A stretch of 64,000 nucleotides of DNA, taken from NCBI RefSeq assembly GCF_046105845.1, contig NZ_CP151004.1; one strand, 5' to 3'. Within the stretch, counting starts at the first letter, position 1; every line of letters begins with the position of its first letter. This document shows, in pieces, positions 46,101 through 49,100 of this stretch. The DNA comes from Escherichia coli (GTDB lineage Bacteria > Pseudomonadota > Gammaproteobacteria > Enterobacterales > Enterobacteriaceae). The position numbers are program-made.

Positions 46101-49100
46101 TTTATGGAATCATCGCGATACATGACATCCCTTATCTGATTGCCAAAAAGCGCAACCATCCCCATGCCGACGCTATTCATACGGCGGGCTGGGTGAGCCT
46201 GTTTACTCTGCATGTTATCTGGCCGTTTCTGTGGATCTGGGCGACGCTCTATCAACCGGAGCGTGGCTGGGGTATGCAGTCACATGTTGCGTCGCAGGAG
46301 AAAGCGACTGACCCGGAAATCGCCGCACTTTCTGACCGAATTTCCCGGCTGGAGCATCAACTCGCCGCCGAGAAAAAGACTGACTATTCCACGTTCCCGG
46401 AGATCTAATTATGGATCTATTGATCGTTTTAACTTACGTGGCGCTGGCGTGGGCGGTCTTTAAAATCTTCCGCATTCCGGTAAATCAGTGGACGCTGGCG
46501 ACGGCGGCGCTGGGAGGCGTGTTTCTGGTGAGTGGTTTGATTTTGTTGATGAACTACAATCACCCTTACACTTTTACCGCGCAAAAGGCAGTGATTGCGA
46601 TCCCTATCACGCCACAGGTGACGGGAATTGTTACTGAAGTCACCGACAAAAATAATCAGCTTATTCAAAAGGGCGAGGTGCTTTTTAAGCTCGACCCGGT
46701 TCGTTACCAGGCGCGAGTTGACAGACTTCAGGCTGACCTGATGACGGCGACGCATAATATAAAGACGCTGCGCGCGCAGCTCACTGAAGCGCAGGCCAAC
46801 ACCACCCAGGTTTCAGCGGAGCGCGACCGTCTGTTTAAAAATTATCAACGTTACCTGAAAGGCAGCCAGGCGGCGGTGAATCCGTTCTCGGAACGTGACA
46901 TCGACGATGCGCGGCAAAACTTCCTCGCGCAGGACGCGCTGGTGAAAGGCTCGGTGGCGGAGCAGGCGCAGATCCAGAGCCAGCTCGACAGTATGGTTAA
47001 CGGCGAGCAATCGCAGATTGTGAGCTTAAGAGCGCAACTTACTGAAGCAAAATATAACCTTGAGCAGACTGTCATTCGCGCACCGAGCAATGGCTACGTC
47101 ACTCAGGTACTGATCCGCCCAGGTACATACGCCGCTGCCTTGCCGCTGCGTCCGGTGATGGTCTTCATCCCCGAGCAAAAACGGCAAATTGTCGCCCAAT
47201 TTCGGCAAAACTCGCTGTTACGTCTGAAACCCGGCGATGATGCGGAAGTGGTGTTTAACGCGCTACCTGGGCAGGTGTTCCACGGTAAACTGACCAGTAT
47301 TTTACCTGTCGTGCCAGGCGGTTCGTATCAGGCGCAAGGGGTATTGCAATCATTAACGGTCGTGCCCGGCACGGACGGTGTGCTGGGAACCATTGAACTG
47401 GACCCCAACGATGATATCGATGCTTTACCTGACGGCATCTACGCCCAGGTGGCAGTTTACTCCGACCATTTCAGCCATGTTTCGGTGATGCGGAAGGTGC
47501 TGCTGAGAATGACCAGTTGGATGCATTATCTTTATTTGGATCATTGAGACTTATATCACCTGTGTTTTGCGTGAGCCTGAGCCATACTGATATTTTTCCT
47601 CGCACAAAGGACTCGGCATGAAACTCGTCGGTAGCTACACCAGCCCGTTTGTACGCAAACTTTCTATTCTGTTGTTAGAAAAGGGTATAACTTTCGAATT
47701 TATTAATGAACTGCCCTATAACGCGGACAACGGCGTGGCGCAATTTAACCCGTTAGGGAAAGTGCCGGTGCTGGTGACCGAAGAGGGCGAATGTTGGTTT
47801 GATTCGCCGATCATCGCTGAATATATTGAATTAATGAATGTCGCTCCGGCGATGTTGCCGCGCGATCCGCTGGAGTCGTTGCGGGTGCGCAAAATTGAGG
47901 CGCTGGCGGATGGCATTATGGATGCCGGGCTGGTATCGGTGCGTGAACAGGCGCGTCCGGCGGCGCAGCAGTCTGAAGATGAATTGTTACGCCAGCGGGA
48001 GAAAATCAACCGCAGTCTGGATGTGCTGGAAGGATATCTGGTCGATGGCACACTCAAAACCGATACGGTCAATCTGGCGACTATCGCCATTGCCTGTGCC
48101 GTCGGATATCTCAATTTCCGCCGCGTTGCGCCAGGTTGGTGTGTCGACCGCCCACACTTAGTCAAACTGGTCGAAAACCTGTTTAGCCGCGAAAGTTTTG
48201 CTCGCACCGAACCGCCAAAGGCTTGATGCGCGATATGTCCTCCTGACCCATCTCACGTTACAATCCGTGGTTATGTTAAACGCCCTTCTCCGTGTGAGAG
48301 GGCCTTGATCAGCCAGGTTTCCTATGACAACCGAAACGCGTTCCCTCTATAGTCAACTTCCGGCTATTGATCGCTTATTGCGCGATAGCTCCTTCCTTTC
48401 TTTGCGTGATACTTATGGCCACACCCGCGTAGTGGAATTGCTGCGTCAGATGCTTGACGAAGCGCGAGAAGTGATTCGTGACAGCCAGACGCTGCCCGCA
48501 TGGTGTGAAAACTGGGCGCAAGAAGTCGATGCCCGACTGACGAAAGAGGCGCAGAGCGCGCTGCGTCCGGTGATCAACCTGACGGGAACCGTGCTGCATA
48601 CCAATCTTGGGCGAGCTTTACAGGCAGAAGCCGCGGTGGAAGCCGTTGCGCAGGCTATGCGTTCGCCAGTGACCCTCGAGTACGATCTGGACGACGCCGG
48701 ACGCGGACATCGCGATCGGGCGCTGGCGCAGCTGCTGTGCCGCATTACGGGAGCGGAAGATGCCTGTATCGTTAATAACAATGCGGCGGCGGTGTTATTG
48801 ATGTTGGCGGCCACTGCCAGCGGGAAAGAGGTGGTGGTATCTCGCGGCGAACTGGTGGAGATTGGCGGCGCGTTTCGTATTCCTGATGTCATGCGTCAGG
48901 CAGGCTGCACCCTACACGAAGTGGGGACCACCAACCGCACGCACGCTAATGATTATCGTCAGGCGGTGAATGAAAATACCGCGCTGTTGATGAAAGTACA
49001 TACCAGTAACTACAGCATTCAGGGATTCACCAAAGCGATAGATGAAGCGGAACTGGTGGCGCTCGGCAAAGAGCTGGATGTTCCCGTAGTGACTGATTTA

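Follow-up and report, generated by a model that had tools for sequence, protein, structure and literature searches.

The interval between yibH and yibF is a described site of Rhs variation in Escherichia coli. It was designated Rhs "position 10" by Jackson et al. (2009), who inferred that the element was gained there inside E. coli, once the B2-type strains had split off (PMC2935791). The presence or absence of rhsA between these two genes is real, common and already documented. In K-12 (NC_000913.3), the stretch from yibF (b3592) to yibH (b3597) holds rhsA, yibA, yibJ, yibG, yibS, yibW, yibV and yibU, of which yibJ, yibS, yibW and yibU are pseudogenes. This is the layout that an earlier note on the DNA studied here had given for K-12, an rhsA element with several small yib genes, and the annotation bears it out. 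The rhsA island is foreign by base composition, with 61.8% GC in the core and 38.4% in the remainder, against 53.7% in the flanks. In occupied genomes, RHS_repeat/TEN_YD-shell proteins of 1395 or 1411 aa are found upstream of yibF, and their C-terminal tips differ within the rhsA group (the K-12 protein has 1377 aa). Such C-terminal variation is expected of polymorphic toxins. According to the work of Hill and colleagues, as summarised in PMC3150448, the C-terminus of RhsA is growth-inhibitory and yibA neutralises it.

The DNA analysed here, which we call the window, is a 64-kb stretch of the E. coli contig NZ_CP151004.1. Relative to the K-12 map its plus strand is reversed, going from position 3,812,545 of K-12 down to 3,749,658. 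Genes were called from the ORF list and the sequence, families were assigned by Pfam, and names were taken from matching RefSeq genomes. The features of the junction are collected in Table 1. An intact yibH and an intact yibF, in the same orientation, lie directly next to each other, and the earlier note's figure of about 70 bp between the HlyD-like yibH and the GST-like yibF proved to be exact. Chance is not at issue for this spacing, because it is an adjacency and not a statistical signal. The yibH gene closes with a TGA stop codon at 47545-47547. At the DNA level, yibI is 100% identical to its K-12 counterpart, yibH is 97.8% identical to b3597 (25 nucleotide differences), and yibF is 99.2% identical to b3592; neither yibH nor yibF has a single amino acid difference from K-12. 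E. whittamii and other Escherichia species likewise have the very same YibF protein (100% identity).

Table 1. Features of the yibH-yibF junction and its neighbours, in window coordinates
Feature	Position	Strand	Remarks
yibI, DUF3302 small membrane protein	46046..46408	+	First gene of the yibI-yibH pair; Pfam E = 2.7e-41
yibH, HlyD-family membrane-fusion protein	46411..47547	+	Intact, 378 aa; Pfam HlyD/CusB families
yibH-yibF spacer, unoccupied rhsA ("position 10") site	47548..47617	+	Exactly 70 bp
32 bp specific to the empty allele	47549..47580	+	Between the BLAST breakpoints against K-12
37-bp block retained in every allele	47581..47617	+	100% identical to K-12
yibF, glutathione S-transferase-like	47618..48226	+	Intact, 202 aa; Pfam GST_N/GST_C
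selA-selB, conserved downstream neighbours	48324..51556	+	Anchor the orthology of the locus

Alignment of this junction to K-12 confirmed that yibH does not adjoin yibF there and that the rhsA island lies between them. The two loci occupy the same chromosomal site, bounded by yibF and yibH with selAB and mtlA farther out, and these shared flanks are 98-99% identical. The BLAST alignment of the window to K-12 ends at 47548, the first base after the stop codon of yibH, and restarts at 47581, 37 bp before the yibF ATG, so that by BLAST 32 bp of the window stand opposite 8,249 bp of K-12 (rhsA to yibU). E. albertii was also seen to diverge at this same yibF-side breakpoint. Compared with the K-12 rhsA locus (b3593-b3596 and the downstream pseudogenes), the window is without the YD-repeat core, the C-terminal tip, the yibA or yibG immunity gene, or any remnant of them. 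Neither tblastn of RhsA, YibA, YibJ, YibG and YibV nor blastn of the whole 8.2-kb K-12 island gave a match at E <= 1e-3 anywhere in the 64-kb window. No large YD/RHS-repeat ORF accompanied by a small immunity ORF was found in or near 47548-47617, and the components that define an Rhs element, namely a core, a variable C-terminal toxin and an immunity ORF, are thus absent from the junction, as is any H-repeat sequence.

We scanned species-representative genomes for YibF and mapped 55 loci by tblastn. The order mtlA, yibI, yibH, short spacer, yibF, selA, selB, with no Rhs element, was found in four non-coli Escherichia representatives (including E. whittamii), which share 90-93% DNA identity with the window, and in Citrobacter amalonaticus, Kluyvera cryocrescens, Lelliottia, Huaxiibacter, Pluralibacter and several other Enterobacteriaceae. 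Across these Rhs-free loci, the yibH-yibF spacer measures 61-92 bp. In Kosakonia, Buttiauxella and Enterobacter, which are more distant, yibIH is absent and mtlA adjoins yibF. The four Escherichia spacers are each 70 bp long and match the window at 66-68 of the 70 positions, and the 32 bp missing from K-12 are nearly identical in other Escherichia species, cryptic clades included. The spacer of C. amalonaticus, at 72 bp, aligns to that of the window over its full length, again with the 32 bp. The non-coli Escherichia (E. whittamii and cryptic-clade representatives) and C. amalonaticus therefore share the window's gene order and a 70-72 bp spacer, with flanking genes that have diverged from it by 7-19% at the nucleotide level. 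Because outgroups with the same order have a spacer that can be aligned, the arrangement predates E. coli. The earlier note had described an unoccupied Rhs site; Rhs material is indeed absent from the window, and "unoccupied" is the right word since the spacer matches those of the outgroup species.

These observations lead us to read the window, with a probability of roughly 0.88, as the ancestral, never-interrupted allele of the yibI-yibH and yibF-selA-selB junction, with a single gain of an Rhs island elsewhere in E. coli. On this model, an ancestor of a large part of the species would have acquired a foreign 8-kb island just behind the stop codon of yibH, and with it the YD-repeat toxin rhsA, the immunity gene yibA and a set of orphan toxin tips together with the immunity genes that go with them; the lineage of the window would never have received this island. 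A single insertion event is argued for by the occupied genomes, all of which share the same two uniform junctions. That the empty allele is ancestral agrees with the inference of Jackson et al. (2009) for position 10 (PMC2935791).

To place the window among its relatives, we evaluated 5,425 complete E. coli genomes matching the region. An empty, contiguous junction was observed in 1,523 of them (28%; 1,537 with a longer 7.9-kb probe), a K-12-type rhsA junction in 3,746 (69%) on the yibF side and 3,716 (68.5%) on the yibH side, and a third island, with fimbrial and S6-peptidase genes, in 143 (2.6%), shares that are not population frequencies because clinical clones are over-represented in the collection. 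Together the three classes cover 5,412 of the genomes. At least three alleles thus occupy the site, beyond a simple presence or absence of Rhs, and the description of this interval as a hot spot for variation between strains holds both for the documented position 10 (PMC2935791) and for the present sample. ST131, Nissle and 042 are among the genomes of the empty group, and K-12, O157:H7 and O104:H4 are among those of the rhsA group. Among the empty junctions, that of the finished genome MEI003 has a spacer 100% identical to the window's, while ST131 has the same architecture with two differences in its 70-bp spacer. Nissle 1917, 042 and VCSW7 also share the window's architecture, their flanks differing from it by point changes alone. 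At this locus, the divergence of the window from every complete genome in the collection is 1-2%, the best matches being VCSW7 (99.0%) and then VCSW5 (98.8%). Its core genes are ~97-98% identical to those of K-12 and ST131, and it is E. coli in the strict sense. The genomes retrieved with its exact SelB protein were all rhsA-positive, and from these it differs by 2-3% of DNA positions, almost all of them synonymous (selB itself has 44 nucleotide and no amino acid differences). This mostly synonymous pattern indicates natural divergence under purifying selection and not an artifact.

An empty junction could also have been produced by an assembly in which an Rhs repeat was collapsed or skipped and yibH was falsely joined to yibF. 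The long Rhs cores are repeated at about 99% identity and often break or confuse short-read assemblies, and two of the loci compared, L010 (Escherichia sp. MOD1-EC7003) and L011, do end near the site. The junction of the window, however, is base for base that of finished genomes such as MEI003 and of 1,523 complete assemblies, and it holds 32 bp that occupied genomes are without. The occurrence of the identical 70-bp spacer in finished genomes such as MEI003 excludes a false join for practical purposes. Spontaneous deletion of a resident island, by illegitimate or repeat recombination that left a scar, is just as improbable. Rhs loci are known to decay, and "relic" loci were described by Jackson et al. 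(2009) (PMC2935791). The island of L010 itself is shrunken, keeping its K-12-type ends with the rhsA core absent. A deletion could nevertheless not have recreated 32 bp that are missing from occupied genomes yet match the outgroups, which is why we regard the window's allele as ancestral. Nor does the window have the marks of a relic or a deletion scar: no residual fragment of the island was found, and yibH and yibF are both intact and full length.

A secondary loss by allele replacement deserves more weight than either of these, although we still consider it improbable. Here an ancestor would have carried rhsA at this site, and the ancestral junction would have been restored when DNA of a strain with the empty site recombined homologously with it, through crossovers in yibH and in yibF/selA. 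The flanks are in fact mosaic. Over 2 kb of mtlA (44000-46000), the window has no mismatch to the soil isolate VCSW7, followed by 5-10 mismatches per 400 bp, and the yibI that is identical to K-12 sits among neighbours that differ by ~2%. The window's exact SelB protein is found in rhsA-positive genomes, as are yibF alleles only 3-4 nucleotides away. On the other side, the closest genomes at the locus are all empty (VCSW7 and VCSW5, then 042 and its like), the sequence requires no extra event, and the outcome of such a replacement would look the same as a site that was never occupied. We therefore keep the never-interrupted ancestral allele as our reading of the window.

The third allele helps to locate the point at which islands enter. 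In EcPF40, the island spans 10.4 kb at 36.5% GC and encodes an HTH regulator, a chaperone-usher fimbrial operon and an S6-family autotransporter peptidase. This fimbrial/S6-protease island (EcPF40, MCJCHV-1) sits directly after the yibH stop codon, which is probably the insertion point of the Rhs island too, but its cargo is wholly unlike that of the Rhs island, and it is absent from the window. Both the K-12 rhsA island and the EcPF40 island open with GGGGGA(A/G)GGGG right after the TGA-G of yibH; beyond this G-run, we found no DNA common to the two. The yibF side of the EcPF40 island still has the ATATCACCTG...TTTT motif of the ancestral spacer, so that the island must have entered between 47548 and about 47553.

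For rhsA, the true insertion point is probably at 47548-47550, just behind the stop codon of yibH. In K-12, the decamer TTATATCACC lies 77 bp upstream of the BLAST breakpoint, and TGTGATTT follows it after 10 bp. When the search was confined to the last 150 bp of the K-12 island on the yibF side, about 1% of shuffles reached the match to TTATATCACC. We tentatively take TTATATCACC to be a remnant of the spacer. If it is, the rhsA island would have entered right after the yibH stop codon, and the apparent replacement of 32 bp would reflect later divergence of the spacer. The exact point is kept tentative because MAFFT gives a rival alignment, to the TTTATTTGGA that resembles the 3' end of yibH, and neither the TTATATCACC nor the TTTATTTGGA alignment drew significant support from blastn-short against the 55 outgroup loci. 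A search for a remnant of the 32 bp over the whole K-12 island was also made and set aside, its best local match lying elsewhere and at chance level (12/200 shuffles).

Two unrelated islands with a shared G-rich start, both of which keep the GCCATACT/yibF block, together with the breakpoint in E. albertii, raise the thought that the point after the yibH stop codon is a specific, reusable site of insertion or cassette exchange and not the scene of a single accident. We consider this unlikely and give it a small probability. An attachment site of the integrase type was not recognised: the 64-kb window has no tRNA, no direct or inverted repeats were found involving or around the spacer, and neither the K-12 nor the EcPF40 island has an annotated integrase. 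No target-site duplication was evident at the K-12 junctions. Were the site reusable, it would point to an unrecognised mechanism of targeting or exchange, and the window's empty allele would be a naive target.

Since the island is absent, the strain of the window is without the contact-dependent RhsA toxin and without the YibA immunity function. Given the activities summarised in PMC3150448, it is possibly a non-aggressor and a potential victim of rhsA-positive neighbours that deliver RhsA. With its empty site, the strain also falls outside the large portion of E. coli that bears rhsA, and the empty allele offers a reference "before" state for reconstructing how the Rhs island entered the species. 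Beyond strain typing, the significance is small and current understanding is unchanged; what is mildly new is only the split of alleles among complete genomes and the G-rich junction common to two unrelated islands.

Nothing is hidden in the 70 bp themselves, which consist of the 32-bp stretch of the empty allele followed by the 37-bp block of all alleles. An Rfam search of the spacer returned no family, and its predicted RNA fold was not more stable than that of shuffled sequence (z = +1.0). Scans for a consensus sigma-70 promoter or intrinsic terminator found none in the spacer, and scans for a consensus promoter or terminator found none in the K-12 yibF-rhsA intergenic region. As yibIH and yibF point the same way and no terminator was recognised in between, read-through from yibIH into yibF may occur in the window. 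In K-12, the island parts yibF from yibIH, and yibF would there rely on a promoter in the 37-bp block and on island-derived sequence. The block may carry the core of such a promoter, in the form of the conserved GCCATACT motif with CATACT as the -10 element; since the consensus scans found none, it is conservation that suggests this. Within the retained block, GCCATACTGAT lies at 47581-47591 and the candidate -10 element CATACT at 47583-47588, while AAAGGA at 47606-47611 is correctly placed for the Shine-Dalgarno sequence of yibF. The CCATACT core is conserved in Escherichia, Citrobacter, Kluyvera and Lelliottia, and different genera and the three E. coli alleles alike have retained both CCATACT and AAAGGA.

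In 143 complete E. coli genomes, we found a third allele at the yibH-yibF site, in addition to the empty 70-bp spacer of the window and the rhsA island of K-12. It is exemplified by strain EcPF40, in which an island of 10.4 kb with a GC content of 36.5% occupies the place equivalent to window positions 47548-47553. The EcPF40-type island and the K-12 rhsA island both start with GGGGGA(A/G)GGGG after the yibH stop codon, yet beyond this opening motif they have no DNA in common.

Further states of the site were observed in other Escherichia. In E. albertii NBRC 107761 (L011 1-838), a MOSC-domain gene adjoins yibF on its upstream side, and the yibF-side breakpoint at which this genome departs from the window, 47580/47581, is the one seen with K-12; ~17 bp past the breakpoint are common to it and the K-12 island end. 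Escherichia sp. MOD1-EC7003 (L010 1-2962) carries both K-12-type island ends with only ~2.9 kb in between, consisting of H-repeat/ISAs1-like fragments and small ORFs; the rhsA core is absent.

Differences from K-12 were also observed elsewhere in the window, and some of the genes concerned are listed in the table below. The waa region (1-18629) is collinear with the K-12 waa cluster, at an identity of just 94.7%. At the edge of this LPS core cluster, ~46 bp (18629-18676) replace 1.27 kb of K-12 (3792655-3793923) that contains htrL, which is therefore absent. The lldP-yibL interval holds a 6.75-kb stretch (34145-40897) with no K-12 counterpart, which encodes the YadA-like autotransporter and the SadB/YajI-family lipoprotein of the table. 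Between mtlA and mtlD there is a small indel (43565-43585), where ~115 bp of K-12 (3774225-3774340), possibly a REP-type element, have no counterpart.

Features of the window and of the EcPF40-type island
Feature	Sequence	Coordinates	Strand	Remark
YadA-like trimeric autotransporter, ehaG-like, 1808 aa	window	34202..39628	-	name from matching annotation of VCSW7 (closest complete E. coli genome at yibH-yibF)
SadB/YajI-family lipoprotein	window	39672..40355	-	name from matching VCSW7 annotation
Second, diverged Fe-dependent alcohol dehydrogenase	window	53245..54396		82% nucleotide identity to yiaY
Fic-domain protein, 431 aa	window	54526..55821		yiaY-aldB interval
hicA	window	57745..57930		toxin-antitoxin pair
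hicB	window	57947..58357		toxin-antitoxin pair
HTH regulator, chaperone-usher fimbriae, S6-family autotransporter peptidase	EcPF40 locus L062	3635-14063		island cargo

The yiaY-aldB interval contains an additional 2.9 kb (52924-55815); in E. coli ST131 and EcPF40, the Fic gene is present at this place but the second dehydrogenase is not. At 57470-58530, the window lacks yiaW-yiaV-yiaU-yiaT (K-12 3751109-3754721) and has the hicA/hicB pair instead, arranged as in two of the comparison loci (L064 and L065). The missing yiaW-yiaV is the paralogue of yibI-yibH. Finally, 58429-62845 encodes a GH127 beta-L-arabinofuranosidase-like hydrolase, an MFS sugar transporter, and an AraC-family regulator, in place of which K-12 has only ysaC/ysaD pseudogene scraps; here K-12 appears to represent the deleted state.
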